Shown here piece by piece: positions 16,203-64,000 of a stretch of 64,000 nt of DNA (position 1 is the stretch's first letter; each line of letters starts with the position of its first letter). A model generated the notes under the pieces. That model was not told the DNA's origin, searched no databases, and saw only the letters and a list, made by a program, of their open reading frames with translations. Source of the DNA: Tubiluchus corallicola (lineage: Eukaryota > Animalia > Priapulida); the NCBI GenBank assembly GCA_030141605.1, contig JAQGDQ010001029.1, forward strand, positions 5,202 through 69,201, read 5' to 3'. The translations under genes were made by a program, and so were the position numbers.

Positions 16203-16407
16203 AAATGCATACTCAACTGCATACATAGACTTACAAATGAAACAAGGTTTAGTTAATGTAGAGAGGTAGTAAACGTGACAAGCATGGTTTACCAGCCACG
16301 GGGAACAGTATACCAACAACTTCTGCCTGTCCTCGGGCAGAGTTAATGAAATTTCCAGGATGACCGGCATTAAATTTCCATCCTGTTAATCGTCTCCTAG
16401 AACTCAC

Positions 16408-25865: not shown

Positions 25866-26211
25866 TCAATTCACAAAGTCGCCCGTTTCATCTGAATGCC
25901 CCTCAGCCCAGTTGCCGGTGACGCATGTGCCCTTACCCCTCCACCAAGTGTTGACGTCTTCGTAAGACTTGTGTAAATCCGTGTGCAACATGGCACACAG
26001 TCGACACCAGAAATATGTGTTGATGAACCTTCCAGTTCCCTTCCATTGGAAATATTCATTATAGAGGTCGTCGTTTTCATCTAGTTTCTTCAGATAGGCG
26101 CCAAGCTCTTTGGGTCCGGCAAAATCGTCCACGTGTATAAATGAGTGGTAGGGGGCAGCACGTTCGTAGTCTTCTTTCTTTGCACCCATCACTATTGGCA
26201 CAATATCGTTC
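25866..26211 (-). CDS. FucTA: Alpha-1,3-fucosyltransferase (GT10, FucTA-like), last coding exon
   Basis: cag|G AAC GAT ATT GTG CCA = (R)NDIVPIVMGA...SFIHVDDF...YNEYFQWK...FWCRLC; phase matches the upstream donor. Confidence 0.9.
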
Positions 26212-29000
26212 CTGAAAATGAATGGCATTAAATTAGCAAACAAGTACTTATGCGTTTAAGTCTTTCAAATAATACACGTCCCTATGTCACGAACACCAGC
26301 TGAGTTTTTTACAATAAAAGATACTATGGCTAGAGTTAGACTCCTTATCCACATGCCCATCTGCTAACTACATAAGCTCCCACTCAAAACAGAAAAAGGG
26401 AAGAACCGATCAGGTAACATGGGGCAAAGGTAATAAGGAAACGCTACTTACATACAAGAACATTATCATCATCATCAATTTATCAAAGCCCAATAAACAT
26501 GTAATGAGCTTATTGGAGTTTTGACCATAAAAAACAAAATGTAAACCAGTCAGGTTTGCGCTTTGATTTGAATCAGGATCCAGGGACTTTCGGATTACGA
26601 GTCCAACGGTTATGTTACCAAAGTAGACAGCATAAGGGACTAAGTGGTCCGGCGTCACAGCGTTAGTTTTGTAATCCAAGTGTACCTGGTTCAAACCAAG
26701 CTTGGCTCTGACATTTTCACGGTTGCTTCCTTTCGGTCGTCTGGTTTATATATACAACCGGTTTATAAATATATATATAACCAAGGAAGCAACCGTGAAT
26801 ATATATATATCGTATAAATTTTAAGTGCAAATTCGGCTAAATTGTATAAATTTTAAGTGTTTCTTTCCTTTTATTATTATCTTTCCCTAATATATATATA
26901 TATATATATATATCAATTTAGTTAACTGTTAGTTTGGAGATTATAGATATTTTTAATCAACTGTCCTTGACAACTCGACAAATCCGTATTCACTGACTAT
27001 TCACGGAACTTGAATTTATACAATTCAGCCGAACATGCATTATTCTCAGCTGCAAGAATACTCAAGACGCAGATCAATAAGCATTACACCTCAAGGCAGT
27101 AAAGAATGGTTTCATTTCCACAGTTCTTTACTTCACTCAGTCACCTCAAACAAGCCGCAAGGTTGCGCTATTGTTTGCTTGATCGATTGATTCACTTTAA
27201 TAAACTGCTCTTTCTACCGCCTTGCAAGTTGGAAGGCATCAATTAGGTGAAACCGATGCTGGCGTAAAAGCTCTGGACCTCTAATATACCGGAGTTTCGC
27301 CAAATTCAGCTTTTGATTCGCATTCGTGGCAAGACCGAAACCAGTGATGACCACGTGCAAGATTCGCACATTACTGAACAACAGTGCATACATAGTACCT
27401 ATATGGGGACGGGGGAATCAGGGCACTGGGGCTGTAGTAGATGTAGCTTGTAAACAGGCTTATAAATAAACACATAACTATGGAATTATTCAGTAAAGGA
27501 GCAAATAAAGCATTGCATTCAATTTCTATGTGTCATTGTGCAGCAAATACTGCATGTACAAGCCCAAAAATGGCCAAAAACTATCTTTTTGATTAAGTTA
27601 ACAAACCTATTAAAGAGGTTTTAGTGTATTCTTAACACGATAATTTCTTTTAAAGACGCCCAGTGAACTATTTTGTCAGTCGATGTCGTGAGCTAAACCA
27701 ATTTAAATCAACAATTTTTATAGCCCCGTTCCTTTTGTATTTCAGAATCTCTATGGTAGCCATCTTCAAATTAAAATGGCCACTCTCAATGTCCAAATTC
27801 TGGTCTTATCTCTCCCACCAAGTTGGGTAGAGTTGCATAAATAATTTCATTTAATGTCAGAATGTTATCAGTTTTAAGAAAGAGAGAGACACTATTTACA
27901 ATCAGAAAAAGTTTAGCACGAAGTAAGATTACTGCTATTGTTCAACATTGCAGATTGTTTTATCAGGGAATATCAGCGATGATATGATAAAAAATGATTA
28001 TTTGGAAATTGACATTTGAGAAACTAATATGATCGCCATGCTGATTTTGAAAAGAAAATGAAAATACAACTTTTAGGTTAAGACAGATCCTTAGTTTTCC
28101 AAAATGTACAGCAAAGTTCTATAGCTTATCTAAACTCAAAAAAGTTTGAACGCACCTTATTGTTTTGTTTTCATAAATGAAAAAGTTAAACAATTACTTG
28201 TAAATGGCAATAGTTATGGTAATAATAAATTCATTTAGCATCACAAATTCGGTAGTTAAGATGTTAGTGCATATTATATAGATAAATACGAGCAGAGGTG
28301 ACGAAACATCATACGGTCACCACAGCAAAGAGCTGTCAGGCAAAATGAATTTGCTCCAATCTTTCGTTTCTGGACAAGCACGTAGCTATTACTAAAGCTA
28401 AATTATAAAAAAAGAACACGCCTCAAGTCACCTATATCTATCTGCGCAAAGGTAAAAAAGACTGGTAACTGTTTAAGTACTGATCTTAAAAAGTTAAAAA
28501 TTGAAACTCATCACAAAAACAAATCAATTATTACGCGAACGTGTTTCAAATCGAAGCTAAAGCCGAGTAAACTGTCACAAACTAGGTTATATTCAACGAC
28601 CACCATCCTGATTCCCTAACATCATCCAGCCAAACGAGTTGCTATGGCAACCAGCCTGACGGTTAGCATCCCCTGAAGTATGTGACATATTATACTGACT
28701 AGGACATCTAAGTTGAAATATAAGGCTATAATGATAACCTAATAATGTAGAAGCCTTTGTAATAAGCTGTTAGCGTCATGACGTACGACACGCGAGGCGC
28801 TGTTTTGACAGAAATGCCACTAACTGTGTATAAAAGATGAGCGTCGTTTACAAATTACTGCTAAATGACGAAAATATAACACTTTTCAAAATTCAAACAT
28901 TATTTTGTTGAAATTCAGAGCAGCGAGAAGAGACGCATTTGAAATTATTCACTGATAAAGACAAAATTTTAATATTGAACACAACCTGAACACATGCGTT

Positions 29001-32165: not shown

Positions 32166-33759
32166 AAATTGATTTATTTCTTTATACATACTGTACTGCA
32201 TTGTGTGTATTTGGCTTAGCCCTGTTTAAATGGTGAACATTACACAGAGCTCTGTAAATACCTAAAACATTTTAAAGTACATTTGTGTAAAGTGGGTTCA
32301 AAGACCATCAAGGAGACATTTATATTCTAAATACATCCACCTTCCTCCAACTACATAATATAATTTTTTAATACACGAGTAAAGGGCTTAACCAGTCACA
32401 CGCACCTCAGCTTGTACGGTTGGAGCCTCTAGCTGGAATGTTTAGAGATAACCACTAACCAGTCAATATTCAACCACCACCACTGCTTGCATGATCACAA
32501 AAACCATGTTGCAATAGTACCATCTTAAGATCCCCCTGAGTAGCTGCTGAAACAGCATTTACTAGCGGGTATAGCTAGAACCCTATAAATAATTATCATC
32601 GGCTGAAGAACATGTTTTTAGTCAAACACGAACCTGTCCGTCAAAAACAAGTCTATAATTTTAGAAGAACATGTTAGAACTTAGTACCAAGTACAAAATG
32701 CTTTCTGAAGATCTATGCCTCTTGCATCACTCACTGCAAGACAAATGCCAAAAGATAAGAAGACCAAAGCGTCAAAGATTTGTGACAAAGCACTTGAAGA
32801 ATGCACGCATGTCGCTGCAGCAATAACTTGTATAGGTATATCAAAATTTGGTGGAACATTACACGGAAAGCTTGCCCAAATCGGGTGGGTGATGCTCCCA
32901 ACTTATGGGGACTTTGTCCATTTACTAAGGTAGCAATAAAAGTTTTCCAATATGCACAGCCATCAAAGAAACTAAGGCTAAGAACAGAAATAAGAATTCC
33001 GTGACAAGTAACTACTATATGACGTCACAAAATGATGTCACAACAATGCTCTATTTTATGACTGGTCGTTAGAAAAAGTCCTTTGTTTAAAGTTTGAAAT
33101 TAAAATTTCCGAAAGTCTTAAGGTTAACTGGACGCACTCTTAAAGGATATCTCAAAACAATCAACCCTATCAAATATTGAAAAGGGAACATACTATTTTT
33201 TCAAGCATAGAATGACTTACGTGAAAGAATTATTACCACAGAATGGTAATTTTGCATTCGCACCACATGCATTTCGCCATTCGATAGTTAGATGGTTACT
33301 AGCACTTGTACCTCAGAAAAGCATTGTAGAAAAAAACAGGTGCTGTACCACACAGTTCAGAGGTGTGCAGGTGTGATGTAGCATACACAATCAAGAGCTC
33401 ATATGTGAGCACAGCGGTAAACTTGAAATTTGAATTTTAAACTTAAAAAAATTCAAGTTTTTATACAGTAGTGCTGTACTTCAATTTCGTTTTCGCAAAC
33501 ACGTGCAACATGCTCATGGAATATTCTTTCTTTTGAAAATTATGTTCAGTTCTGATGTCATCACTATATGGGCTCACCAGCCATCAAAAAAGTTTTTAAG
33601 TTATTATTTGATTATCAGAAACGCTTTGCCATTATTACAGGCATTGAAATGTATACTTTTTACCGTATTTCAAAATGGGATACGATATGAAAATTCGTCC
33701 TGTTTTCCTTCAAACTAAAAGGTAGCCAACTTATGCATCAATTTCAACAGAAGACTTAC

Positions 33760-34796
33760 CTTAAGCCAGTATCGAAGAATTTCTCTGTGATATAATCACG
33801 ACAGTTAGAGTTTTCAAAAGATAAATAGAATTTGTACTGCTTATTGAGCATCTTAGTGCACTGTTTATGTTGACTTCTCGGACAGCTAAGTGACCCGCAG
33901 CTTCCGTAAATGTCTACGGGAACATGATTTCCTAATTCATTTGCGTACTTTAGACGATCATTTCTGGATCCACAATTTGACACAAACCAAGCAACCATCT
34001 TAGTCTTACCCTCGGCGTAGTCTCTGTTTTGTGGCAATGTTCGCACTTTAGAATCGTAAAGTTCAAACCTTTCATACGGAGTCACAATGTCGGAATCGTG
34101 CCGATAGGTGGCAGTCCAGTTGAAAACATTACTGAATCCGCCTAACCACTGTGAGTGATACGGACACTCTAGCTGATACCAGATCCAAACCTGACTGGAC
34201 GGTCGATGCTGAGACGAAACTGAGCTCGAGCTGAAATAGTTCCGAAACAAGATGGCGTCTGCATTAGCACCGGGATTTTTGTGTTCCGTCAGTTCACAGG
34301 TGTCTATACGACACTTCTGCTGCTGGAATAGCAACCGTCCACTCGGTACGTTCCAAAATCTTAGCCCTGTTTGAACGTAAATGAGCTTGAGTGTTTCGGG
34401 ATTGGGCTTTTCCTTGGGAGAATAGTTCAACTGCTCTATGATACGATCACCCGCATCTTGATGTGGCCACAAGGGTAGCTTAGATACCACACTGGAAGCA
34501 TTGCTAAGACATGTAATGTCGTCTGGTACTGGTTTAACCTCATACAAGGTGACCGGGGCACTCGTATTTGGTTGAGAAATCATGTCACGGGGTACCATAT
34601 TTTCCTTTTTGGGTGTAGCTATGTTTTGTGGCGGGTTTTTCAGAAGAACCACTTGATCGCCGCTCCGCATCTCTCTGGCCATCTGCCAAACACTTTCAAG
34701 ACTATTGTTTGTCGAAAGCCTCAAATTTAGGAGCAAAACCATGACTAGCACAACACCCCCGAAGATCAAGATTGAACGCCGTACGGAGAACCTCAT
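33760..34796 (-). CDS. FucTA: Alpha-1,3-fucosyltransferase (glycoprotein 3-alpha-L-fucosyltransferase A-like), first coding exon; 460 aa after splicing
   Basis: Type II TM anchor near the N-terminus; FNWTATYRHDSDI, VAWFVSNC and the alpha-1,3-FucT motif YKFYLSFENSNCRDYITEKF. Donor AG|gtaag at 33760/33759. Confidence 0.92.
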
Positions 34797-35559
34797 GGTG
34801 AGTTAGCGTTCTACACAGCTATCTTCCCATTGAACTTGCTAACACCTCTAGATGTGTGAACTTAAAAAGGGACATCTTGGCAACGGCAAAGAGCTGATGG
34901 AATCCTGGCAGTGATGACGTACACGCTTTCTCTTCCTTACTCATTATCAGTCCTACAAAGGAAGAACAAATTATTAGTACTGCAAAGTTAGCAAAACATA
35001 TTACCAGTCCAGTAACTTGGATTGAGCACAAAGGTTTGTATCTAGAAGCAACCGCTAGAGTAGAAAGTTAGCAATTCTGCATTTAACCCACGTCAATGCG
35101 GTACTCACTACTGGGCAAATCAGACTTCATTTCGCTTGCAAATTTACTGAATCAAACGCCAGCTATTACACCCTAGTGCTGCAAAGTGAATTCCAGTCTA
35201 ATAAACAACGCGCGTGTAATCAAACGATCAATTTAAGCTTAACTACTGGCAAGTGCTAATTAATAATTTATAACTAGCTGAGCTGGGCCAGTAGAGAATC
35301 GCTCTATTGAGCAAACATGCAGTCAACGATTCTATGTGCAAAGCGTGAGAGCTCATACACATTGAGCAGGAAGGATTCTTAAGTTACAAAGAAAAACTAA
35401 TTATCTGTACGAAGCAACTTATTTTGAACAGTCAGTCTTGGCATGAATAAACTAACTGGCATGTTTGTCTGTCAATAATAATATTAATATATTAATTAGT
35501 AATGGCTCGCATGTAGTTTCGGCCTCAGATAGCGCTGATTTTTTATATAAAACTTTTTT

Positions 35560-50859: not shown

Positions 50860-51434
50860 TTAACAGCACATTTAACGTAACATAATGTGGCAGATTGTTT
50901 CTTGACATCAAAAGGTTTTGTGTTTCAAAATATTTTTTATATCCTATGGTAAATGTGAACGCCAAACTCAGATATAATGTTTAGAAAGATTTACATCAGA
51001 AATAATTTGAAATATACAACAGCAATGCCAGGCTGCAACAAGCAATACAAAACTATAAAAGTAGATGTGCACAACACAGCAATCTTTCCAGTACATCAAG
51101 TGCTGCCATCTATAAAGTGAAAAACTTTGTATGCGTGTCAGACTATCACCACATCTTCAATTTATTGTACAAAAACCCTGGCAGCCACGTGTTACTCTTC
51201 AAAAACAAACTTTTTCACAGTTGCAGTAATTGAAGATGATTGTGAAAAGGTCAAAGGTTAAATGTCTTTTCCAGTCTCAACGTGTAAGTTTTAGATAATC
51301 TCACACTTATATGGCCGACCTGATTGAAGTGAGTCATCTGTTGGATTCATATTTCTAGCCATAGGCTGTAATAGCTCGATGATCCAACCTGCAAATTTTA
51401 CAAATGCATAATGTTCCTAGAAATAAATGGCGGT

Positions 51435-52175
51435 AGTAGGATAGATGTTACACCTCTGGCCGATTTCCCGGGGGGGGTGGGGATTTCCCCGGGGGGGTGG
51501 GGAAAAACACCCCTAAAAAAGTGCGAAAATCCGGGAAAACCCCTAAAAAAGTGTGAAAACCCGTGTGAAAGTGCGCACGTGACCGAAATCGACGAAAAAG
51601 CGCGAAAAACAAAGAAAAACGAAGAAAAGGCGTGTGAAACGAGGTAAAAATTTTCCATTTTTTCCCTCCCGCATGGCTTCATTTGGATCGAATGACCTTG
51701 AACTCTAGGTCACGTGACCAAAGTTCATTGACCCCTGGCCCCTGGATGGCTTCTTTTTTTGACGCCCCATTTTAAACCGCGCGAAAGCGCGCGAAAGCGT
51801 GCGAAAGTGTGTGAAAGCGCGTGAAAGCGCGTGAAAGTGCGCGAAAGCGTGTGAAAGTGTGTGAAACGAGGTAAAAAGCGCCTCAAACGAAGAAAAAGGG
51901 AGAAGTGGAGTTCCCGCCGAGGACTAATTAGTGCTAATTGGCGCTAATTGGCGCTAATTGGGGAGCCCCTGCCACCCCTCCGCCGCGTGCAAACGTCCGT
52001 CCCGGGGGTCGGGGACACCCCCCTGCAACCCACCCCTCCGTCGCATGGAATCGTCCACTGCAGGCAATGAGGGAAATCTTTTTCCCGCCACTCGCGCAGT
52101 GCCGGCCCTTTTCCGCGACCACTTCTCTCTCTCGGGTGCCCTCCCTTTTCCGCGACCACTTCTCTCGCGGGTTTA
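51435..52175. repeat. Putative left terminal inverted repeat region with internal 10-bp repeats and G/C runs
   Basis: Non-coding and GC-rich. Nine GYGAAAGYGY-type units at 51781-51866; four CTAATT(A/G)G units at 51924-51961. The partner TIR is not in the window, so the inner boundary is unknown. Confidence 0.6.
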
Positions 52176-52186
52176 GATGTGTGTGT

Positions 52187-52335
52187 GTGTGGAGATTTAT
52201 TTCAAATGCCAAAGTTCGATAAATGCATTTTCACAAATCTTTTTTATTGATGGATTACAGGTGTGGAGATTTATTTGAAACGCCAAATTTCGATAAATGC
52301 ATTTTCACAAATCTTTTTTTATTGATGGATTACAA
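52187..52335 (-). terminator. Duplicated block of about 74 bp carrying poly(A) signals for the minus-strand unit
   Basis: Two copies of GTGTGGAGATTTATTT...TTTTTATTGATGGATTAC, each with two minus-strand AATAAA, 140-280 nt after the TBP-like stop. Confidence 0.6.
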
Positions 52336-52471
52336 AAAATTTTTTTTACATTTTTTATGCAAAATACATACGTGCTAAAACTAGATTATTATTATTATTA
52401 TGGTGACATGATAGTTCTACATTTTACGTTTTTTTCGCAAATTACACAAATTACGCAAAATTACAGTAAAA

Positions 52472-53056
52472 CTACACTAATGACGACGAGCGAGTACATG
52501 GATTGTCGTCGTCGATGTGATACAGACAAACGTTATTGTTGTTAAAAACGAATTCGTTAAATTTGCGGAAAACGCGAGAGAAATCCTCGACCTTTGTCCC
52601 GCCCATCATTATTATGCTTCCGGTGTGAAAAATGTTCAGAGTAATTTGCTCGCATTTGCAAGTTAGTTTGGGAAATAGTTCCACTTCGTAAAACACTTCT
52701 CTAAAAGAATGCGTCGAAGGACGAACGAGTTCTTCGTACAGTGCACCCAGTTTCAATCTGCAGTGAATTTTGGCTCTGGCGGTGATGGTGCGAATTGCGA
52801 TCCCGTCGGCGGGCGTCAGTCCGAGACCTTTCGAGAGTTCTTCGATCGCATTGCGTAGTGCTTTTTCCTCCGAAAAACCGTTGGCCACCACGGAGCCGGA
52901 GGCAAAAATCATCAGCGTCCTGCCCAGTCGCTTTAGCAGAACCATTTGCGGTTTCCTTTCGTAGCGTCTTCCGCCCGTTCTCCGCCGGAGTTCGTTCAGA
53001 TCGAAGCGCTGCGAGAACGAAGCAGTGGCGACGATGTTGACCGTTTGGACTGACAC
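52472..53056 (-). CDS. Polinton-encoded TATA-box-binding protein (TBP)-like protein (about 194 aa; no ATG, candidate GTG start)
   Basis: Both TBP repeats: VNIVATASFSQRFDLNEL (cf. QNIVSTVNLGCKLDLKTI), TLMIFASGSVVANG (TALIFSSGKMVCTG), YEVELFPKL (YEPELFPGL), LNIFHTGSIIMMG (LLIFVSGKVVLTG). Confidence 0.85.
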   Translation of the reverse strand: MSVQTVNIVATASFSQRFDLNELRRRTGGRRYERKPQMVLLKRLGRTLMIFASGSVVANGFSEEKALRNAIEELSKGLGLTPADGIAIRTITARAKIHCRLKLGALYEELVRPSTHSFREVFYEVELFPKLTCKCEQITLNIFHTGSIIMMGGTKVEDFSRVFRKFNEFVFNNNNVCLYHIDDDNPCTRSSSLV

Positions 53057-53508
53057 GTTAGAACGTAGTTGGCAATCGTTTCGGACGCCCGAACCGCTCT
53101 GCCTCGCCCGTTGCTCTGCCAACGTATGGCGGGCGGCGGGTGCTCGCTTTCCAAATCTTCTACGCGTATGACCACGCGATTTTTGGGGAGATGTTTTTTG
53201 ACGAAATCGTACATCTCTGCTCCCTTGACGTAGGTGATCCTGCCTCTGGTGGTCTGTCGTAGAATGTTTTCCAATTCTGCATACTCGATCATTCCCTCCT
53301 CCCACGAGATGCCGTGTATGTGTCTGATTAGGTAGTTGTAGGTGGATCGCTTGTGCTGGGGAACGCGATTCCAGGGGTGGGGCGGTTTGAAGGTGTAGTT
53401 GTGATATATGCCGGTCTCTATTTCGCGAATTACCAAATTTTTGACCAGGTATTCTTCTTTTCCGCACTGGAAGGCATCTATGGTGAGAACTATGCTCGAT
53501 TCAGACAT
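52996..53508 (-). CDS. Maverick-type DEDD/DnaQ-like exonuclease-fold protein, probably catalytically degenerate
   Basis: Matches the recalled Maverick accessory pattern LVK.L..HxYxFKPP.W..HGI.W..G...Y..L..IL...YVKG.E...EDL. First acidic motif is altered (TIDAF; KNL rather than KEL). Confidence 0.65.
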   Translation of the reverse strand: MSESSIVLTIDAFQCGKEEYLVKNLVIREIETGIYHNYTFKPPHPWNRVPQHKRSTYNYLIRHIHGISWEEGMIEYAELENILRQTTRGRITYVKGAEMYDFVKKHLPKNRVVIRVEDLESEHPPPAIRWQSNGRGRAVRASETIANYVLTCQSKRSTSSPLLRSRSASI

Positions 53509-53731
53509 CTGTGACGATGGGGGGTCCTTCTACGCCGTCGGCAACGAGTTTTCCTTCGATGACGATTTGCTTGTGATTGTTCACAAATTCCAGAGACTTG
53601 ATTTTTTCGAAGGTGTATTTTTTTATGACCTTGTTGGGGGCACTCTTGCGTGCGTTGGCGCGCTTGCCGCCCCGCGTCCCCGCTTGTTGTTGTTGCTTGC
53701 GAGGAACGGTGGTTAGAGGTTGTTTGAAATC
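53501..53731 (-). CDS. Small unknown Polinton protein, exon 2 (leader-spliced; 105 aa in total)
   Basis: No ATG of its own. Preceded by a strong acceptor (tataactattgttcttcttcttctcttgcag|GAT TTC AAA) in phase with the leader exon. Its stop overlaps the next ATG. Confidence 0.55.
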   Translation of the reverse strand, partial: DFKQPLTTVPRKQQQQAGTRGGKRANARKSAPNKVIKKYTFEKIKSLEFVNNHKQIVIEGKLVADGVEGPPIVTDV

Positions 53732-53785
53732 CTGCAAGAGAAGAAGAAGAACAATAGTTATAGTATTGTTGTTCGCTAACGACAA

Positions 53786-54799
53786 CTAGGCATTTTTGAT
53801 GAGCCATTCTTTCAGATTTCTAGGTTTTTTGGGGGCAGTGGGGGTGAGCACCATCGGCGGCGATGGAGGGGGCGTCGCGGAAATTACGAGTTTGTCTTCT
53901 TCTTTATCATCATCTTTCTCCTCTTCCTCCTCCTCCTCTCGAAAGATGTCCATTCGTGTCCCTCTCTCGCGTCTGCTTTTACACGGAGGGGCGGAGGTGC
54001 CGACGTCGACGACATTGCCGGCAGACTTCTTTCCGTCCAGTTTGTCCAGTTCCTCGCGTACCCGTCTTCTCGTATCTGCTCCTTTCAATATTCTGCGTCC
54101 CATTCTACCGATGATGACGCACTGTCCATTTAGCAGACTTCCATCCCTAATGGACACTCCCTCGATGCAGAGGAAACCTTGCCAAACTGTCATTCTACGA
54201 CGCGGCGACAATTGACATTCGTAGTATTCGTCGTCGTCCTCTATTTTGTCTATCTCCCCCTGTAGTTTTTCGTATTCTTCCAGATGGAGGTTGATGCCGG
54301 GTTTGGTCGGAACGAGCGTGGCGACGCCGTCGCTGTCCTCGTATTTCCTCTTCACTTTTTCGACTGCCCGTCTGAGACCTATGCTGGGATGCGTTGCCCA
54401 TTTGCTGATCAACACGTAGGTCTGCCCACACAGAAAGATGGCACCCGGATGTCGTTGACGTTGATACTTTGCCCTCGTCCAGTAGTGTGACATTTTCACG
54501 GCTATGATCATCCTATCGATTAATTCCGATTCCAGCAGTGCCTGTACGGCCTCCTGACTCAACTCGAAATTTTGCTCGGGAAAGATGAAGAGCGGTCTAG
54601 AGTTTGCTATCATGAAAGACGTTCTGGCAGACAGTTGTATTTCAAAATCCGTATAAGATATCTCCTCGTTCAAGGCAGTCAGTATTTCTTCTCGTTTACG
54701 TACGAGTTTGCCATACTCCATCACCGTCAAAGACGCGTGCTTCCCCCTAGTGAGTTTTTCGGTAGCGGGATCGTAGTTAGATCGTCGCCGAAAGTGAAC
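53786..54799 (-). CDS. Multi-PC4 (Sub1/PC4 ssDNA-binding coactivator-like) protein, exon 2 (366 aa with the leader)
   Basis: ttgaccttttattcgtag|GTT CAC extends the ORF in frame. PC4-like motifs VHFRRR...RGKHASLTVMEYGKL and IGLRR...PTKPGINLHLEEYEKL (cf. PGRKGISLNPEQWSQL). Acidic and Pro-rich tail. Confidence 0.7.
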   Translation of the reverse strand, partial: VHFRRRSNYDPATEKLTRGKHASLTVMEYGKLVRKREEILTALNEEISYTDFEIQLSARTSFMIANSRPLFIFPEQNFELSQEAVQALLESELIDRMIIAVKMSHYWTRAKYQRQRHPGAIFLCGQTYVLISKWATHPSIGLRRAVEKVKRKYEDSDGVATLVPTKPGINLHLEEYEKLQGEIDKIEDDDEYYECQLSPRRRMTVWQGFLCIEGVSIRDGSLLNGQCVIIGRMGRRILKGADTRRRVREELDKLDGKKSAGNVVDVGTSAPPCKSRRERGTRMDIFREEEEEEEKDDDKEEDKLVISATPPPSPPMVLTPTAPKKPRNLKEWLIKNA

Positions 54800-54922
54800 C
54801 TACGAATAAAAGGTCAAAAATTTTTTTAACACGCTCCTGCCCCCTGATGCTAAATAAAACAGGAAAAAAACAACGTTTCGGTATTCGAAATGCTAGAAAA
54901 ATAATAATGAACATTTACTCAC

Positions 54923-55009
54923 CTGATACACCTCGTCTAAGGATGAAAGCGATGTTGACAAATCGTGTGTCAGCGGATACACCAAGGCATCATTCTCCAT
55001 CATTAACAT
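54923..55009 (-). CDS. Shared 29-codon leader exon of the Polinton minus-strand unit
   Basis: MLMMENDALVYPLTHDLSTSLSSLDEVYQ ending in a perfect donor CAG|gtgagt, phase 0, downstream of a TATA box. Confidence 0.65.
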
Positions 55010-55097
55010 ATAGCGATGTTTTTTCGTCGTCTGCGGATGTATGTGCTATCGCTGTGTCGCTCGAGACACTTGTGTCATCCCCCCGTCAAAACACCCC

Positions 55098-55345
55098 ATT
55101 ATATAGCCGCTCTCTTCCGGTTGACGTCACCCAACGGTCGTTTGCCGTTAACAATAGCTCAAGCGTGAATGACGCAGCGTCTGTTCACTCTACCGTTTTC
55201 CCGCCAAACCGTCACGATGCGTCACACTACACGGCATCTATTGTGAAAAAAACACGCTGTTTGAACACGTTCGAGTGGGCTAACCGTTTTTTTTCGTATG
55301 CATTGCGGTATTTTTATTCTTATTTTGATACAAAATTTATAAAGG
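55098..55345. promoter_or_regulatory. Divergent promoter region between the two Polinton gene blocks
   Basis: Minus-strand TATATAAT at 55098-55105; ETS-type CCGGAAG at 55114-55120; palindromic CRE TGACGTCA at 55122-55129; further TGACGCA/TGCGTCA sites; plus-strand TATAAA at 55338-55343 before the ATPase. Confidence 0.6.
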
Positions 55346-55374: not shown

Positions 55375-56010
55375 ATGGATCGAATTTATGATGCGAGATT
55401 GAAATTTGGCAGCACCATGTTGGTGGCCGGACCCACTCGCGCCGGGAAAACCACTTTTGTAAAAAATTTACTCCTTCATCGGAACGTGTTGTTCGATGCT
55501 AAACCGGACAGGGTGTTGTGGATTTCGCAAACACCCCCTCCACTAGCCTCCTCTCGCGAAGAATTACAAGAAGTGGAGTACAGCGAGGACATAAATGTCG
55601 GAATACGTGCGGGAGATCTGGTGGTGGTAGACGACATGATGACGGAACTAGCCACCTCCAAACGACTGACTGACATGTTCACAAAGCTAGCACACCACAA
55701 ACCGTGTTTCGTGGTTTTCATCACGCAAAATCTTTTTCAACAGAGCAAAGAATCGAGAACGCGCAGTCTAAACACCCACTACTTGGTGTTATTCAAAAAT
55801 CCGCGCGACAAGATGCAGGTGGAAGTGTTGGGTAGACAGATGTATCCGGGTAAAACGAAATCTTTTAGGGAGGCTTTCGAGCGCGCCACCGCAGCACCCT
55901 TTTCTTACGTGCTATTCGATTTGCGTCAGGAAACCGACGATGCCATTCGCATGAGAAGTAACATATTTCCTCACGAAGTACCACAATTGGTTTTTCTTCC
56001 TCAAAAATGA
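55375..56010 (+). CDS. Polinton genome-packaging ATPase (A32/FtsK-like)
   Basis: Walker A GPTRAGKTT, Walker B LVVVDDMM, FITQNLF and SLNTHYLVLFKNPRD. The start is probably the ATG at 55375 rather than 54847. Confidence 0.92.
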   Translation: MDRIYDARLKFGSTMLVAGPTRAGKTTFVKNLLLHRNVLFDAKPDRVLWISQTPPPLASSREELQEVEYSEDINVGIRAGDLVVVDDMMTELATSKRLTDMFTKLAHHKPCFVVFITQNLFQQSKESRTRSLNTHYLVLFKNPRDKMQVEVLGRQMYPGKTKSFREAFERATAAPFSYVLFDLRQETDDAIRMRSNIFPHEVPQLVFLPQK

Positions 56011-56070
56011 GATAAGCAAAATGGTGCGCGTTGCATGCGACATAGAATTATTAACGACAACCGCAAAAAA

Positions 56071-56448
56071 ATGTCTCAAGCGCGCATTAGACGACACAGA
56101 CCTTTTCTCAAGCAACTCGCTCGTGCCAAACCGCGCGATAGGAGGGAGATGTTAAAGTGGGCCGATGCCGATGCGATTAATTTTTTGGCAGAATGCGCTC
56201 TCAACATACTACGCGGTAATGTGAAGTTGAAAACCAAACAGATAAAGGTATTGAGGGGACATCGCAATGTGCTGAGAAAATTGGCACGCGCCGGTTCCAC
56301 GTTGAAGGCCAGAAGACGTGCGCTAGTGCAAAAAGGTGGTATATTTCCAATCATACCCCTCTTGGCGGGCATATTTGGCGCCACTTCGGCTGCTGCTAGC
56401 GTAGCCAGAACGGTGAAGACATTCCGCGATAAGAAGAAAAAGAAATAA
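56071..56448 (+). CDS. Conserved small basic Polinton protein with an adenain-type site and a hydrophobic/amphipathic C-terminus
   Basis: ECALNILRGNV...LRKLA...QKGG|IFPIIPLLAGIFG pattern typical of the ORF that follows the ATPase in group-1-type elements. Confidence 0.75.
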   Translation: MSQARIRRHRPFLKQLARAKPRDRREMLKWADADAINFLAECALNILRGNVKLKTKQIKVLRGHRNVLRKLARAGSTLKARRRALVQKGGIFPIIPLLAGIFGATSAAASVARTVKTFRDKKKKK

Positions 56449-56449: not shown

Positions 56450-57247
56450 ATGTATTCTCAGATGGTTTTACTACCGCTGGCAGAGTATAACAGGTTAAAA
56501 CATACGCGCCTCGTTCTAGACACGCCCGTCGAGCAGAAAACTGTAGAAATTCAACAGAAAATGGCGGAATTGGCAGCTCGAGGATTGCCACCCGATGTGG
56601 AAAATAAGATGAGAAGCGAATTGATGCAGGAGATCAAAGATTTGAAAAAACCCTCCTCCACGGGCGAAGATGACGATGGAACCCGACTGAAAGACACTCA
56701 AATAATCGAGGCATTACCCACCAAGTACAAGAGTAGGGGACAAAAAATGCTCTCCTTTTTGAAGGCCCATCGAACGCGTTGGGATGAAATGGGGCGTTTC
56801 GTGCACGAGGGACGCGCAATGAGTGGCACGCACCTGGTGGACTTGATAAATTTTGCTACAACTAGCGAGAAGATGACTCCCCCTCGCGGTTGGTCCGACT
56901 TTTATCGTCATCTCAAAGAAATAAGTGTGCCCATGACTCTATTGGGTAAAACGGCTAAGACAGAACTCGAGAAGGGTCAACAGCAACAACAGCAGCGCGA
57001 AAGGTTGGGACTGACGACACCCCCATCCTCTCTAGCGCATCGACGCGTGGTGGCCGATGACGAAGCGAGGACAGCGACACCGACACCACCACCACCACCA
57101 GCCCCTCTACCTTCTAATAAACGAACCACGCGAAAACGTGGACCTCAACAACAACAACAACAGCAACAACAGCATCCTCGTCGCCGACGTCGACGACAAT
57201 CCTCACCCATAGTTAGAGAATGGGTGAGACTGGAGACAGAAGATTAG
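56450..57247 (+). CDS. Conserved uncharacterised Polinton protein (PW-like)
   Basis: MVLLP start, LP..YK.RG..ML.FL, WDE.G, G.HLVDLI, PRGW..F...L.....P..LLG; low-complexity C-terminus. Confidence 0.7.
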   Translation: MYSQMVLLPLAEYNRLKHTRLVLDTPVEQKTVEIQQKMAELAARGLPPDVENKMRSELMQEIKDLKKPSSTGEDDDGTRLKDTQIIEALPTKYKSRGQKMLSFLKAHRTRWDEMGRFVHEGRAMSGTHLVDLINFATTSEKMTPPRGWSDFYRHLKEISVPMTLLGKTAKTELEKGQQQQQQRERLGLTTPPSSLAHRRVVADDEARTATPTPPPPPAPLPSNKRTTRKRGPQQQQQQQQQHPRRRRRRQSSPIVREWVRLETED

Positions 57248-58314
57248 CCGAAATCTACTACGATTTGCGTCATCCTGCCGGTTATGCTAGCGCACGTGCA
57301 TTGAAACGCGCCTCTGGCGACACGATGCGTCGCGTGCGCGAATGGTTGAGTGCACAATCCGCCTACACCCTCCACAGGGGTGCCAGACGTAGTAGATATG
57401 ACACTCGCCCGACTTTGACGCGCGGTATCGATTATCAATGGCAAGCCGATTTGGTAATTATGGACGCGCTATCCAAATATAACGATGGCTACAAATACAT
57501 GTTAACCGTGGTGGATTGTTTTAGTCGTTATGCCTGGGCGAGAGCTTTGAAGAGTAAAGGTGGACGCGAAACTGCCGAGGCTCTACGCTCCATATTCGAA
57601 GAGGAGGGGCGCGCGCCCCTCAAATTACACACGGACAAGGGTAAAGAATTTCAAAATAGACATGTACAAAAATTGTTGAAAGACTATGGCATATATTTTT
57701 TCACCACGGAAAGTGTCTACAAGGCGGCCCTGGTGGAACGTTTTAACAGAACTTTAAAATCGAGATGCTACAAAGTTTTCACCCATCGCAACACCCTGAG
57801 ATGGATAGATTTTCTCCAAGATCTGGTGTACGGATACAATGGTGCCACACATCGCACCATAGGAATGGCACCGCGCGAGGTGAATGCACGAAACGAGATG
57901 CTTTTGTGGAGAAAATTATATGCCAAAGGAAGGAGGCGAAGAAAGAAAGATTTAAGAACACCTTCGAAATTAGTGGTGGGGGATTTGGTGCGTCTTTCCA
58001 AAGTCAAGGGACGTTTCGAAAAGTCTTACTTTCCCAACTGGACGGAAGAACTGTTCACGGTTAGTGCGGTGTCCGAAGGTGACGATTTCGCCACTTGGCC
58101 GCCCGCTTACCGCATATCCGATCACACCGGCGAAGAAGTGCGCGGTATATTTTATCGTGAAGAATTACAGAAAGTGATCAAGACGGACGACGTTTATCGC
58201 GTGGAAAAAGTACTCAAAACCAAAGGTAGAGGAAGACATAAGCGTTTCTTTGTAAAATGGTTGGGTTATCCCACAGAGTTTGCCAGCTGGATAACTGCAG
58301 AAGATTTTGTGTAG
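57220..58314 (+). CDS. Retroviral-like (c-)integrase with C-terminal chromodomain
   Basis: YYD..HPAGY; DDE triad WQADL / LHTDKGKEF / VERFNRTLK; chromodomain YRVEKVL...FFVKWLGYP.EFASWI. Confidence 0.93.
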   Translation: MGETGDRRLAEIYYDLRHPAGYASARALKRASGDTMRRVREWLSAQSAYTLHRGARRSRYDTRPTLTRGIDYQWQADLVIMDALSKYNDGYKYMLTVVDCFSRYAWARALKSKGGRETAEALRSIFEEEGRAPLKLHTDKGKEFQNRHVQKLLKDYGIYFFTTESVYKAALVERFNRTLKSRCYKVFTHRNTLRWIDFLQDLVYGYNGATHRTIGMAPREVNARNEMLLWRKLYAKGRRRRKKDLRTPSKLVVGDLVRLSKVKGRFEKSYFPNWTEELFTVSAVSEGDDFATWPPAYRISDHTGEEVRGIFYREELQKVIKTDDVYRVEKVLKTKGRGRHKRFFVKWLGYPTEFASWITAEDFV

Positions 58315-58321: not shown

Positions 58322-59104
58322 ATGATACCGGGTAGTTTTTCCGTGTTATTGCCCTCTAATGCCTCTCCCAAAGTGTATCCGGAGAACAGGCCGGGCGCCT
58401 TTCGCGTACAACTGCTCGATCCGCTAGAGCTGAAGGGAAACTGGGAAGTGGGTCTGACAGAAATAGTCTATCCGCGCTCATTCTACAATTACGAGGACAA
58501 CGAGTCGGTGGCCTTTATGACCCACGAGCGTGCCGTCAAGCTACCAGTGCTAACCGAATTTGCCGCACACTCCAAAAGGTTTAAACACATAGAGCTACCA
58601 AATGGACATTATAGCGATGCAAAAGAGCTGATGCACTACATAAATCAACAACTTCCCAAAAAGTTTTTCAACGTCACCTTTCACCCCATATCTAGACACT
58701 CCCACTGGGCGGTTAAGGGAGAACTTTCCACTCTGGTCTTACGTAAACCGGTCACCGACATGATGGGTTTTTGGAACTTACCTTCGGCGATACTCACCAT
58801 AGGTGAACACGAATCCCCACACCCCTGCAAAGTGGATAGAGGACAACAGACGTTATACATCTATCTAGATTGCATCGAGCACTCCGTCGTGGGTCACACT
58901 TCTGTACCTCTCTTGCGTGCAATAACCATTGCGCGACAGCATGGCGACACTGTCACTCACGAATTTCAGCGCATCTACTACCGCAAAGTTAACAAGAGTC
59001 AGATAAAAAGTTTGGAGGTGTATGTTTGTGACGACACTGGTAAAAAAGTGAACTTTCATTGGGGCCACATGATTTTGAATCTACACTTTAGACCATCATT
59101 GTAA
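58322..59104 (+). CDS. Minor capsid protein (penton, PX)
   Basis: F.VLLPSNAS...YPEN...FRVQL...LELKGNWEVGLTEIVYP and C-terminal YIYLDCIE..VVG....PLLR...LHFR. Confidence 0.85.
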   Translation: MIPGSFSVLLPSNASPKVYPENRPGAFRVQLLDPLELKGNWEVGLTEIVYPRSFYNYEDNESVAFMTHERAVKLPVLTEFAAHSKRFKHIELPNGHYSDAKELMHYINQQLPKKFFNVTFHPISRHSHWAVKGELSTLVLRKPVTDMMGFWNLPSAILTIGEHESPHPCKVDRGQQTLYIYLDCIEHSVVGHTSVPLLRAITIARQHGDTVTHEFQRIYYRKVNKSQIKSLEVYVCDDTGKKVNFHWGHMILNLHFRPSL

Positions 59105-59177
59105 CACCGTTGCAACACCGCTAATAACTAATAAGCAAAAAAAGACACCCGCATCAGAACAAATTTACAGAAAGAGG

Positions 59178-59570
59178 ATGGTGGCCAACAGCGATCCCTA
59201 TTACAGCTATTATAGCAAACCTCAGATCGGGGGTGTGCTACCCGTATATGCCGGTGCAGGCTTACAGTCTGGCAGTGGCTTGTTTAGCCTTATAGCTCGC
59301 GTTGCCATACCGCTAATACGAAAAATTGCCAGTGTGGCTAAACCTGCGGGACGGCTAGCAATGGGTGCCGCTAAAAATATAGCCAAGTCGACTGCTAAGA
59401 GAGCAGCCGGCGGTTTAAAAGATGCTCTAGCGCAAGAGATAAGCAAAACCGTGTTGAGTGCAAAAAGACGTAAAGCAAAACCCGCTCAGCGCCGACGACG
59501 TCAGACTGGTACTGGTAGAAGAACGAGAACAAAGGCAAAAAGAAGAACAAAGCGCGATATTTTTTCCTGA
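59178..59570 (+). CDS. Basic core/membrane-active protein (PZ-like)
   Basis: YY..QIGG.LPVYAG...QSGSGLF followed by an amphipathic helix; Arg/Lys-rich C-terminus with QTGTG, ending DIFS. Confidence 0.75.
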   Translation: MVANSDPYYSYYSKPQIGGVLPVYAGAGLQSGSGLFSLIARVAIPLIRKIASVAKPAGRLAMGAAKNIAKSTAKRAAGGLKDALAQEISKTVLSAKRRKAKPAQRRRRQTGTGRRTRTKAKRRTKRDIFS

Positions 59571-59619
59571 ATTAGTAATCGGATTGCATAAAGAGGTAGA
59601 GAAGAAAAAAAGAAGAACA

Positions 59620-60924
59620 ATGGAAACACTGGCGGCTAAAAGTGAATTGGATTTGTTCACAGAAATGCCCACTCAGGTGGCCATTTCCGAAGGACAATAC
59701 GTGGATTTTCATCCCATAAACACCTACACGGAGAATGTGACTAGTCCCATCGAGTTTCACATAATTGGTAGTTCTGATGAATACTTAGATTGCGACGATG
59801 TGCATCTAGTTTTAGATGTGCGCATGTTAACCGCAGCAGGTCAACCCATTAGAGTGGGTGCAGGGGTAGAAGATCCCCTTCCACATGTGGCACCAGTCAA
59901 TTTGCCCGCCACTTCCATGTTTTCGGATTGCGAAGTCATTTTGGGGAATACCCAAATACAGGGAGGCTCGCACGACTATGCCTATAGAGCTTACCTGCAA
60001 ACCTTATTGGAGTACGAACCTGACACAAAAGATACACAATTGATCATAGCAGGATGGCAACCTGACCCCAGTAACAATCGAATCGATCAACCGGATCAAA
60101 ACAATTCCATACAAGATAGAGCGCGCCCGTTGCGCGATGGCGCAACGCATCAATACGTCACTAAACTGTTTGTAGATTTCTTTAGACAACCGCGTTTTTT
60201 GTTGCCGGGCGTGGACTTGCGCATAAGGTTGATTAGACAGCGTGCAGACTGGTACATGATGAGCGCCTATCCGGATCGCGAAGTCTATTTGCACGTACAA
60301 AGAGCCGTCTTGTATGCACGACGCGTGCGCGTGATGCCAAGCGTGCTTAAAGCACACCTTGATGGTCTGAGTCGCTATAATGCCATCTACCCTTACAATA
60401 AAGTAGAAATGACCAGTTTCACCATTGGACAGGGAGCACAAAGCATCGTGAAAGAGGATCTGTTCTCGGGTCGCGTACCAAAACTTTGCTTATTCGGACT
60501 CGTGAGAAATGACGCTTATAACGGTTCGCGAGCACTTAGTCCATACAACTTTCAACATTTCAACATCAATCACGTCACCATGTACGTGGGCTCGGAAGAA
60601 ATGCCACATCGCACCTTTCACCCGAATTTCCCGAGTGGAATCGTAGGACGCGAGTTTGTTGCTCTTTATCAGGCCTTTAATCTGTTTGGTAAAGATAAAG
60701 GAATCATCACACCTACAGAATTTAAACGGGGTACGACGCTCTTTGGATTTAACCTATCTCCAGATCAAAGCCTGGTTGGACATCGCCAAGGTGATAAAGG
60801 CGGTCAAGTACGTATCGAATTGAAATTTGCGCAAGCATTACCACACACCGTAAATGTGGTGGTCATGGCAGTATTTGATGCCAAAATCGAGATAACGAAA
60901 TTACTTGACGTCATAACACTATAA
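59620..60924 (+). CDS. Major capsid protein (double jelly-roll, PY)
   Basis: KSELDLF...PTQ..I..G.Y....PI, PIEF.I.G..DEYLD, YAYRAYLQTLL, AYNG....SPYNFQHF, G.TLFGFNLSPD, G.VRIELKFA.ALP.TVNVVV. Confidence 0.9.
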   Translation: METLAAKSELDLFTEMPTQVAISEGQYVDFHPINTYTENVTSPIEFHIIGSSDEYLDCDDVHLVLDVRMLTAAGQPIRVGAGVEDPLPHVAPVNLPATSMFSDCEVILGNTQIQGGSHDYAYRAYLQTLLEYEPDTKDTQLIIAGWQPDPSNNRIDQPDQNNSIQDRARPLRDGATHQYVTKLFVDFFRQPRFLLPGVDLRIRLIRQRADWYMMSAYPDREVYLHVQRAVLYARRVRVMPSVLKAHLDGLSRYNAIYPYNKVEMTSFTIGQGAQSIVKEDLFSGRVPKLCLFGLVRNDAYNGSRALSPYNFQHFNINHVTMYVGSEEMPHRTFHPNFPSGIVGREFVALYQAFNLFGKDKGIITPTEFKRGTTLFGFNLSPDQSLVGHRQGDKGGQVRIELKFAQALPHTVNVVVMAVFDAKIEITKLLDVITL

Positions 60925-62340: not shown

Positions 62341-62529
62341 TTCTTTTCAAGCTTGGTGCATTTGTGAAAAATAAAAATTAAATATATAAAGCCATGTGAA
62401 AGAATAAAAATTATTTTTAAAACACTTTATTAGCAACAACAACACTTTTTAAAACAACTTATTAAAAAATACTTTAAAACATCATAAGTAACAACAATAC
62501 ACTCTTAACAACAATACAGTCTTTTTATG

Positions 62530-62790
62530 ACATGGGAATGGTTGCATACTATATTTAACAGCATCACCAACATGGGAATGATTGCATACTATATTTAACA
62601 GCATCACCAACATGGGAATGATGCGTCTACTGTAAAACGGTATTCACCGAAGCAGAAAAAATACGTGAACACTGTCACTTAACAGTATATTTAACAGCAT
62701 CAGCAACATGGGAATGATTGCATACTATATTTAACAGCATCACCAACATGGGAATGATTGCATACTATATTTAACAGCATCAGCAACAGC
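62530..62790. repeat. 40-bp tandem repeat (about 5 copies, one interrupted)
   Basis: CATGGGAATGATTGCATACTATATTTAACAGCATCACCAA units at about 62531, 62571, 62611, 62707 and 62747. Confidence 0.85.
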
Positions 62791-63047
62791 ATTAAAACAT
62801 CATTTACTAACAACAATACTTTAAAACATCATATAGTGGCTTCATACAATGATGTATTAGGTATAGAATGGAGGAGGTGGGATTGCAACAGACAAACTGT
62901 TACACATATAATGGGGGTATAGCATTTATCAATTAAACATGTTCATATATTGTGTTCAATTCACAATTTCAAACAGACTACAGACTGTTACATAAATACA
63001 ATATTTAGTCGGTTCGGACCGTGCCCCTCCCTCTAACATATTTGTTG

Positions 63048-64000
63048 TCATAGAATAACACTATCATCATCGTCATCATCATCAACATCAACATCATCAT
63101 CACAGATATTGACAACAGTTACGTTAGGAGGTCCATGAAAAGGTCGATTTTCGACGGGAGGAGCGACAGTAGAAACAAAAGGTTTCGTCTGGTCTACTAA
63201 ATAATGTCCGTATGGAACGCTGAAATTTTTTGACAGCCAGCATCTTTTATCATCAAAAAAAGATAGCGATCTTTTGGAAGAATGTTTAGTGTATATGTGA
63301 TGTCGTTGCGATGTGAAGCGAATTGTCTCGTGCGTCATTTCCACCTGCTCTGTAAAGGCACGCTCAAAATCTTCGTGAGTTATTTGTTTTGAAATTGTGC
63401 GCCTATCGACACCTTTGGCGCGCTTTTTGCTTTGTCGAAAATCAACGCTCTTCATGCTGTATAATTTGGGCTTAAGTAAAATCCATTGTTGGTGAAGCGA
63501 GCCTTGTGACTCATCTTTGAAACAACCTAAGCGTGCCCGATTTTCCTCCCGATAAAAAACGTGATCTTTAGGATAATTCGAGGTATCGATCACGTTTCCT
63601 TTCTGTAGAAAATGGGGGATTAAAATCTCGGGCACACTCAGATTTTTTACTTGGAGAAAAAATGAATCCGTGTCCGAACCGACAATTTTCACATCAGCTT
63701 CAGGAGATAAAATTTTCATTTCGTCATCACTGAATGTTTCGTAGCGAAGGCGATACATTATCAATTTAGAAAGGTCAAGAACGGTCTGACCTATATATAT
63801 TGGCCTATCTAAGAAAACGTTGGTTTTGCGCAGTCTGTGAGCACTCACAGTATTATTAAAAATGTTAAAATCTTGGTGGTCCGGTCGCCTCAAAAATTGT
63901 TCGCACGCTTTTTGACTAGTGGCCAATTTTAAAGAGCAACGTTTGCGAACGTTTTCCATACTTTTGCCAAATAAACTGTTATTGAACAGCTTAAAAAGAT
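63048..64000 (-). CDS. Protein-primed family B DNA polymerase (pPolB), C-terminal part; runs off the window
   Basis: Motif B KLFNNSLFGKSMENVRKR, RPIYIGQTVLDLSKL.MY, motif C GSDTDS, DTSNYP, LGCFKDE, KPKLYS, KRAKGV, DDKR. Confidence 0.93.
   Translation of the reverse strand, partial: LFKLFNNSLFGKSMENVRKRCSLKLATSQKACEQFLRRPDHQDFNIFNNTVSAHRLRKTNVFLDRPIYIGQTVLDLSKLIMYRLRYETFSDDEMKILSPEADVKIVGSDTDSFFLQVKNLSVPEILIPHFLQKGNVIDTSNYPKDHVFYREENRARLGCFKDESQGSLHQQWILLKPKLYSMKSVDFRQSKKRAKGVDRRTISKQITHEDFERAFTEQVEMTHETIRFTSQRHHIYTKHSSKRSLSFFDDKRCWLSKNFSVPYGHYLVDQTKPFVSTVAPPVENRPFHGPPNVTVVNICDDDVDVDDDDDDDSVIL

Follow-up and report, generated by a model that had tools for sequence, protein, structure and literature searches.

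A Polinton in the priapulid Tubiluchus corallicola encodes an altered TATA-binding protein (TBP) of its own, which is likely to switch on the late genes of the element. The element lies in a stretch of 64,000 nucleotides (GenBank assembly GCA_030141605.1, contig JAQGDQ010001029.1, positions 5,202 to 69,201 of the forward strand), here called the window. The altered TBP and the ATAA box found before seven of the eight late genes together indicate that the TBP likely turns these genes on. Judging from sequence, a structure model and analogy, we give a probability of about 0.55 to the reading that this protein works like the late switch of the herpesvirus viral TBP (vTBP), yet is not a member of that system. 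In the first-pass annotation the TBP had been placed in a transcription module with a PC4-like protein; the TBP observation stands, and the TBP-PC4 module is without support.

The gene is found on the minus strand, near the left end of the element.

52472..53062, minus strand: divergent two-repeat TBP core, from Pfam, PDB sequence matches and a model; first ATG at 52945

Pfam family PF00352 (TBP) matches in two stretches with 80.3 bits, against a cut-off of 22.9, and all 35 matches at E<=1 in a PDB sequence search are TBPs. The AlphaFold model, made with a 30-row alignment (A1), has a pLDDT of 92.5, and 87-98 over residues 1-180; its best Foldseek match is yeast TBP, 1tbp (E 8e-11, TM 0.76, rmsd 2.3). 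The two-repeat TBP homologue proposed earlier from the letters is borne out by these values, and the structure prediction suggested as a check returned the saddle.

Individual residues were compared with plant TBP P0005 in A1, using the Arabidopsis numbering of PMC10005294, whose available text describes the roles of the stirrup glutamate pair (TFIIB binding) and of the intercalating phenylalanines. Both glutamates are kept in the element TBP; E128 is present in 30 of the 30 rows and E126 in 26. Three of the four intercalating Phe are kept, so that the canonical set of four is incomplete: the C-terminal pair remains (30/30 and 29/30 rows), as does the second N-terminal Phe, and the first N-terminal Phe is replaced by Pro within a P-x-M motif common to 16 of the 30 rows. 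Further, three central Asn/Thr positions, which we take to be DNA contacts, are altered compared with plant TBP, and the first Asn is kept. The basic face of helix 2 is, by eye, less basic than in cellular TBP.

A homologue search of 1.84 billion representatives gave 136 matches, only one of them close (P0001, 58-59% identity). In a tree of 46 rows picked by hand from these matches, the element TBP falls in a starred clade (97/94) of 25 short divergent TBPs, and 11 cellular-type eukaryotic TBPs, all non-animal rows, form a separate starred clade (99/99). Grouping the element TBP with these 11 is rejected (p-AU 0.0016). A recent capture nested among host TBPs, raised earlier as a possible refutation, is thus disfavoured for the cellular TBPs sampled. 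Within the divergent clade, conservation is highest in the stirrup, and the N-terminal DNA face is variable; when 15 other members were looked up, 1 was found to bear a name.

The other half of the argument comes from the regions before the plus-strand genes, where the following boxes are found.

55339..55342, plus strand: ATAA box at -36 of the ATPase ATG, within a canonical TATAAAG
56012..56015, plus strand: ATAA box at -59 of the basic core-like open reading frame (ORF) 56071-56448
56429..56432, plus strand: ATAA box at -21 of ORF 56450-57247
58291..58294, plus strand: ATAA box at -31 of the predicted minor capsid gene
59124..59134, plus strand: two ATAA boxes, at -54 and -47 of ORF 59178-59570
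59588..59591, plus strand: ATAA box at -32 of the predicted major capsid gene
60892..60895, plus strand: ATAA box at -32 of the cysteine protease gene

In the range -20 to -60, which was set after looking, ATAA is the top 4-mer: it precedes 7 of the 8 plus-strand genes, compared with 18 of 107 other ATGs (Fisher p 7e-5), and none of the four ATGs of the minus-strand, presumptively early, block. In local shuffles, ATAA reached seven genes in 0 of 2000 and any 4-mer in 86 of 2000. The spacing for the ATPase, minor capsid, major capsid and protease genes is -36, -31, -32 and -32. A box lacking the first T of TATA precedes six of the seven genes: five of them have it as their only box, and at 59124-59134 one of the two boxes is of this kind. 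Three boxes are within upstream coding sequence and so cannot be accounted for by stop codons.

TBP genes are also present in other Polintons. Scans of genome contigs found Polinton contigs mis-binned in bacterial metagenome-assembled genomes (MAGs), and three of these, L007 (the same as L009), L015 and L016, come from one MAG. They have the cassette order of the window, and the TBP lies directly past the protease in all three contigs reaching that region (3/3). The two complete TBPs among them keep all four Phe, and of 20 upstream regions in these contigs 8 have TATAA, where 3.4 would be expected (nominal p 0.009, uncorrected for the 8 motifs tried). A joint change of box form and TBP DNA face across two element groups fits these sequences, in what is one comparison.

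The same residues could be read in a different way: the TBP homologue might be a decoy or adaptor that binds host TFIIB or Brf1 through its stirrup but has little DNA specificity, the ATAA boxes being read by host factors or themselves serving as initiator or leader elements. The well-kept stirrup and the variable N-terminal DNA face of the clade would agree with this, and there are precedents in the available parts of three papers: in TRF2 the loss of an intercalating Phe accompanies the loss of TATA binding (PMC10005294), BcRF1 of Epstein-Barr virus (EBV) does not discriminate TATA from TATT in vitro (PMC4893493), and VITF-3 of poxviruses shows no activity towards DNA unless polymerase is there (PMC12917281). 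However, the three Phe and the first Asn that are kept suggest retained minor-groove binding, and box form tracks the Phe count in the two element groups, although two groups prove little. We find the decoy unlikely, and prefer a TBP that reads DNA.

The element is under purifying selection. Counting the coding differences that are listed (40 of 155 rows), 24 of 25 among the copies are synonymous, compared with 34% expected; the early block has 6 of 6 (DEDD-like 2/2, PC4-like exon 2 3/3, exon 1 1/1), and in a diverged family 9 of 10 listed differences are synonymous. The PC4-like and DEDD-like genes look constrained.

The TBP gene belongs to a minus-strand block that diverges from the virion cassette, an arrangement described in the first-pass annotation and confirmed by the ORF layout. 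Upstream of the TBP the block contains the following features, with the poly(A) signals at its far end.

55098..55224, minus strand: predicted early promoter, with canonical TATATAAT at 55105, a palindromic cAMP response element (CRE) at 55129-55122, three more CRE half-sites and an ETS-like site
54923..55003, minus strand: predicted shared coding exon 1, 27 codons, phase 0
54800..54922, minus strand: predicted 123-nt intron, sequence-based, with a CAG/GTGAGT donor and a T-rich acceptor
53786..54799, minus strand: predicted exon 2 of the PC4-like protein, with up to four beta-rich repeats (by eye) and an acidic tail
53501..53731, minus strand: predicted exon encoding a small basic protein; it is in phase with exon 1 and shares the TBP frame, from which a single TGA separates it
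52996..53508, minus strand: DEDD/Maelstrom-like protein of 170 aa, from a widespread unnamed family; the fold is a lead only
52243..52323, minus strand: poly(A) signals at 52323, 52275 and 52248, after the TBP; none between 55105 and the TBP stop

The TATA, CRE and ETS-like motifs reported earlier are present in the sequence at 55098-55130, and we presume that they are what they resemble. CAG/GTGAGT (54923) is the sole donor in the block that matches at 9 of 9 positions. The strong acceptors at 54799 and 53731 are each in phase with the 27-codon exon 1, and an AG stands immediately before the DEDD-like ATG. With one TATA, one strong donor, several acceptors and one poly(A) cluster, the block reads as a single spliced unit, and from its sequence it looks like one with alternative 3' splicing.

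The PC4-like and nuclease-fold partners proposed for the TBP do not hold up equally well. The best PC4 repeat (PF02229) scores 13.3 bits within the full protein and 17.2 bits when taken by itself (E 0.0037), under the cut-off of 25, and the other four pieces of the gene (three repeats and exon 1) matched no Pfam family. The internal repeats are not significantly similar to each other (p>=0.09 in 8 of 8 pairings). A single-sequence fold has a pLDDT of 33.7; its top structural match is Whirly (Z 3.7, rmsd 3.3, 53 aligned), and MRP1/2 and Pur-alpha are among the 50 structural rows, all within noise. Homologue searches found none, and the Atlas also returned nothing. For the DEDD-like protein there is no Pfam, PHROG or PDB match and no homologue was retrieved, so that this label stays sub-threshold; its Atlas neighbours are unnamed, mostly eukaryotic clusters (0.95-0.96), and Maelstrom (0.86) and an Rv2179c-like exoribonuclease (0.78) are leads only.

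The proposed complex of TBP, PC4-like and nuclease-fold proteins is thus without support: the PC4 match is sub-threshold, no link from DEDD to transcription was found, and PC4-like folds act in replication as well as in transcription, including a phage T5 homologue (PMC7549692, in the available text). By analogy, the PC4-like protein is more likely a single-stranded-DNA binder of replication than a coactivator.

That TBP and PC4-like protein form a viral pre-initiation complex, in which the latter serves the late genes as a coactivator or by helping to melt promoters, is in our view less likely again than the decoy. The two genes share one predicted early unit, one repeat does score on Pfam PC4, and in L007, L015 and L016 the TBP adjoins a conserved unnamed family (L007:3-545 and 1140-1898, L015:11206-11997, L016:5171-5992) with an N-terminus that is PC4-like by eye. 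Members of this family match its profile with E 2e-29 and 2.5e-14, and L007 has two paralogues, one on either side of the TBP (z 13 between them). The likeness to PC4 failed every test: the family has no PC4 match and no PDB match, its profile gives a probability of 0.6% against the PC4-like protein of the window, and 1 of 4 local pairings with that protein has p 0.01. As to the proposed co-occurrence of TBP and PC4 in animal Polintons, TBP was recovered in three contigs, beside neighbours for which a link to the window protein failed. PC4-like ORFs occur near two other Polinton integrases, at L024:2514-2861 (19.1 bits, under the cut-off) and L014:2039-2668 (no PC4 score); both contigs have a zinc-finger-like Cys-rich ORF, and a link from either candidate to the window protein failed.

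How the TBP is started is less obvious. Its frame, 52472-53500 on the minus strand, holds the complete core from about 53060. The first ATG (52945) lies about 40 codons inside the fold and is the same internal Met from which P0001 is called, whereas 25 of the 29 relatives in A1 start with a Met upstream of the first TBP strand. At its 5' end the core runs into the last part of the DEDD-like ORF, and the frame stays open across the whole of that ORF.

53063..53500, minus strand: stop-free extension of the TBP frame over 146 codons, in the -1 frame of the DEDD-like ORF; no Pfam match

Under four synonymous nulls, 146 open codons across the DEDD-like ORF have P 0.0002, 0.0009, 0.002 and 0.005, and the same relative frame in other element genes has at most 118. 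The extension contains a single slippery-type heptamer XXXYYYZ, at 53440. The TBP frame also continues the frame of the small ORF beyond a single TGA, and weak acceptors are present in it; a start by splicing, frameshift, read-through or near-cognate initiation is possible. Two listed differences in the overlap are synonymous in the DEDD-like frame and nonsynonymous in the TBP-extension frame. A deep contig (X1) across 52458-53202 has no frameshift and only an in-frame 6-base insertion, and the diverged family matches 52992-53050 with 7 differences in 59 bases, a match for which double coding could account.

The least probable of the alternatives, that the gene is a 5'-defective remnant yielding at most a fragment from the internal ATG, with the late genes using host TBP, would suit the missing upstream ATG and the lack of a strong in-phase acceptor upstream of the first strand, but has against it the whole intact fold, the X1 contig, the shared internal start of P0001, the match of the diverged family and the 146 extra open codons.

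Of the small protein in the annotation, the ORF is there, but the frame in phase with the donor is 53501-53731; the 105-aa ORF that begins with an ATG, 53490-53807, is out of phase and was rejected. The acceptor at 53731 has 16 pyrimidines of 16. The predicted protein contains ARKSAP (53636-53653, minus strand) and PRKQ (53693-53704, minus strand). ARKSAP was noticed post hoc; 4e-6 to 2e-5 occurrences would be expected per shuffle, and the window, translated in six frames, has a single one. H3K9 and H3K27 both lie in ARKS sites, and ARKSAP has been claimed as an H3 mimic in SARS-CoV-2 ORF8 (available text of 10.1101/2021.11.10.468057), a claim that is disputed (available text of PMC10833455). 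No relatives of the small ORF were retrieved, PDB searches with the protein did not return histone H3, and a search of other Polinton contigs did not find the motif. A role as Polycomb decoy is possible by analogy. Neither the spliced early unit nor the overlapping open frame nor the H3K27-like motif was part of the earlier account.

The mechanism that we favour would run as follows. Host TBP and CREB/ATF-type factors would fire the one canonical promoter, at 55105, and the early transcript would be spliced from one donor to alternative acceptors, giving the PC4-like, the small basic and probably the DEDD-like protein. The TBP, last in the unit, would be made in a non-standard way, through a weak acceptor, a -1 frameshift, read-through or a near-cognate start, and would therefore be scarce. 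It would then bind N-ATAA-(G/C/A) boxes, mostly without the first T of the TATA box, and recruit host TFIIB and RNA polymerase II to them, turning on the late genes. Its neighbours would be co-expressed early helpers and not subunits of one complex: the PC4-like protein might bind single-stranded DNA during strand-displacement replication, the ARKSAP protein might be a decoy for writers or readers of H3K27, and the DEDD-like protein might bind nucleic acid.

More tentatively, and as a possibility rather than an expectation, animal Polintons may have a full viral cascade, in which a spliced early unit provides a single-stranded-DNA binder, an H3K27 decoy that blunts Polycomb silencing, and a recoded, scarce TBP of altered specificity that licenses the capsid genes at ATAA. 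If so, no smaller viral TBP switch would be known; it would have arisen independently of that of herpesviruses, and box and DNA-binding face would change together across element families.

Several observations weigh against a TBP-driven late switch. The early-to-late switch of the first-pass annotation has gained a candidate late box before the virion genes; with n=8 and the range chosen after looking, however, the family-wise p is about 0.04. The ATPase box is a canonical TATA, the integrase is the sole gene of the eight without a box, and boxes at about -32 would leave 5' leaders of a few bases only. In the presumed orientation, the kept C-terminal Phe/Pro would be expected to favour a T at the first box position, and this T is missing from most boxes. 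In L007, L015 and L016 ATAA is found in 11 of 20 upstream regions, compared with 10.5 expected, and the box comparison is limited by these contigs being one sample with two close kin. None of the 25 listed differences falls inside the TBP core, so that the selection signal is one for the element as a whole. Animal TBP, TRF2 and TRF3 are absent from the tree, and long branches can attract. Finally, the 185 codons upstream in the TBP frame hold no ATG (11 are near-cognate), and the best in-phase acceptor, at 53008, would remove the first strand.

Turning to the setting, the window from 51435 onward is the left part of the Polinton; its terminus begins with AGTAG, which we take to be a Polinton-type end, and the right end is beyond the window. 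From about 51435 the GC content goes from about 0.35 in AT-rich host DNA to about 0.46 (the bin 51001-52000 rises from 0.33 to 0.45). The terminus is followed by the minus-strand block, the plus-strand cassette (ATPase, two basic ORFs, integrase-chromodomain, predicted minor capsid, 130-aa ORF, predicted major capsid, protease) and the end of a probable polymerase.

51435..52200, no strand: probable left terminal inverted repeat, from the GC rise and the AGTAG terminus; inner limit approximate, partner repeat outside the window
55375..56010, plus strand: packaging ATPase, weak FtsK/AAA Pfam matches, 37% to the L007 ATPase
56071-56448, plus strand: basic core-like ORF
56450-57247, plus strand: second basic ORF
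57220..58314, plus strand: integrase with chromodomain, by Pfam, integrase (rve) above cut-off
58322-59104, plus strand: predicted minor capsid, from gene order and similarity to L007
59178-59570, plus strand: 130-aa ORF
59620-60924, plus strand: predicted major capsid, no Pfam match, putative identity from E 3e-46 to the syntenic L007 gene
60924-61541, plus strand: cysteine protease, weak Pfam match (Peptidase_C5, E 0.0067)
63048..64000, minus strand: probable protein-primed DNA polymerase, C-terminal part, running off the window; no Pfam match

By sequence, the element has the gene set of Polintons/Mavericks (Polintoviricetes): an rve integrase, ATPase, protease and two predicted capsid genes. 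The segment at 63048-64000 is presumably the polymerase, judging by its motifs. A longer ATPase of 387 aa was rejected, as the ATPase alignment begins at 55375. Tandem repeats of 40 nt lie between protease and polymerase (62490-62828), and repeats of 10 nt and 74 nt lie in or beside the terminal repeat (51764-51876 and 52187-52319); all of them may be arrays of origin or enhancer elements.

Four runs from two studies contain 69-78% of the sampled words. Near-identical contigs occur in thousands along the entire element, which fits a multi-copy family; they are far fewer in a second sample with the same label. About 170 nt outside the terminus there is a short host repeat (51207-51265), common to all runs and with many loose ends. 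Introns and gene fragments in the host DNA are in keeping with an animal host. Elsewhere in this DNA, the plus-strand ORFs 889-1575, 6031-7032 and 11077-11439 have signal-peptide-like starts and a common Cys-rich C-terminal pattern, one with Gln-rich repeats, and are likely a cluster of secreted paralogues. On the minus strand, 16249-16593, 18770-21547, 25866-26255 and 33756-34802 are host features that we take to be a ribosomal protein S13-like exon, an intact-looking endonuclease/reverse-transcriptase ORF of 925 aa and an alpha-1,3-fucosyltransferase-like gene in two exons.

Eukaryotic Polinton-type contigs were mis-binned in several bacterial MAGs (L007-L009, L011, L015-L017 and L022; L010, L012-L014, L018-L021, L023 and L024). 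The TBP survey extended to L025, with L026-L031 outside it. No TBP match was found in L008, L010-L014 and L017-L025; these have no major capsid and protease matches and so count neither way. No Polinton gene was found in L006. Past the TBP region, L015:12009-12428 is presumably a dUTPase-like gene. Scans of viral contigs gave four loci, giant-virus-like by their ORFs, none of which matched the Polinton genes of the window, and the one match in a metagenome scan was false.

To our knowledge, most animal Polintons have neither a free particle nor a regulated cycle established. Viruses, unlike plain transposons, need a dedicated late factor and boxes to match it, and the switch proposed here therefore bears directly on whether these elements are viruses or transposons. 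If true, it would also provide a natural TBP of altered specificity, informative on how the saddle reads DNA, and the H3K27-like motif suggests a way in which an integrated copy might counter silencing.

The description of the system as undescribed has to be narrowed. For MELD viruses, TBP is already listed as the label of a gene by Starrett et al. 2021, in the legend of Fig. 5 (PMC8502044) and likewise in the preprint of that paper, whose available text does not specify the element that bears it and gives no mechanism; the text of the supplement has 0 matches. No study that we came across deals with a Polinton TBP, late box or PC4, though such annotation may be held in bioRxiv supplements, figures and subscription journals, and the spliced early unit, late box and H3K27-like motif were not found in the Polinton literature searched. 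The available text of 10.1101/2022.05.25.493380, 10.1101/2023.08.22.554363, 10.64898/2026.06.19.733378 and PMC11131425 has 0 mentions of TBP, TATA or PC4; in the last of these, coral polintovirus capsid genes are reported to form their own expression cluster, and VLTF3 is reported.

Among known systems, the vTBP of beta/gamma-herpesviruses (EBV BcRF1, ORF24 of Kaposi's sarcoma-associated herpesvirus and murine herpesvirus 68, UL87 of human cytomegalovirus), with TATT late boxes, is the working precedent (PMC4893493, in its available text). Both are viral proteins of TBP fold with a non-canonical box before late genes, there is no viral RNA polymerase in that system (same source) nor in the visible part of the element, and herpesvirus BcRF1 and U58 are among the structural matches of the element TBP, at ranks 48 and 28. 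However, the element core stands alone with about 180 aa and 21-27% identity to cellular TBP, while vTBP is large and multi-domain with about 10%, and the boxes are ATAA and TATT, respectively. There is no sign of the five other herpesvirus proteins of the viral pre-initiation complex in the visible element, where no profile search was aimed at them.

Many giant-virus TBPs match the element model, and Nucleocytoviricota TBPs likewise put a viral TBP fold to stage-specific transcription. Poxvirus VITF-3 is a TBP/TFIIB pair loaded by the viral polymerase (PMC12917281, available text); the visible part of the element, in contrast, has no TFIIB-type zinc ribbon pattern and no RNA polymerase. With the PC4-like superfamily (PC4/Sub1, Whirly, PUR, the T5 homologue) the likeness is one repeat resembling Pfam PC4, under the cut-off, and tandem repeats would fit the type I intramolecular dimer (PMC7549692, available text). 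The small protein, itself only predicted, shares with viral H3 mimics such as SARS-CoV-2 ORF8 the same six residues ARKSAP in a basic, probably disordered stretch; the motif is missing from the other Polinton contigs searched.

Compared with cellular TBP/TRF (PF00352), the two-repeat saddle (TM about 0.7-0.77), the stirrup Glu pair and three of four Phe are common, while in the element TBP the first Phe is lost, three central contacts are changed and the protein falls outside the sampled cellular clade. In the remainder of its visible genes the element resembles Polintons/Mavericks/adintoviruses, with integrase-chromodomain, ATPase, protease, predicted capsids and polymerase in the order of L007. 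The element is thus most likely a Polinton with its own reshaped TBP, a variant on a known kind of element.

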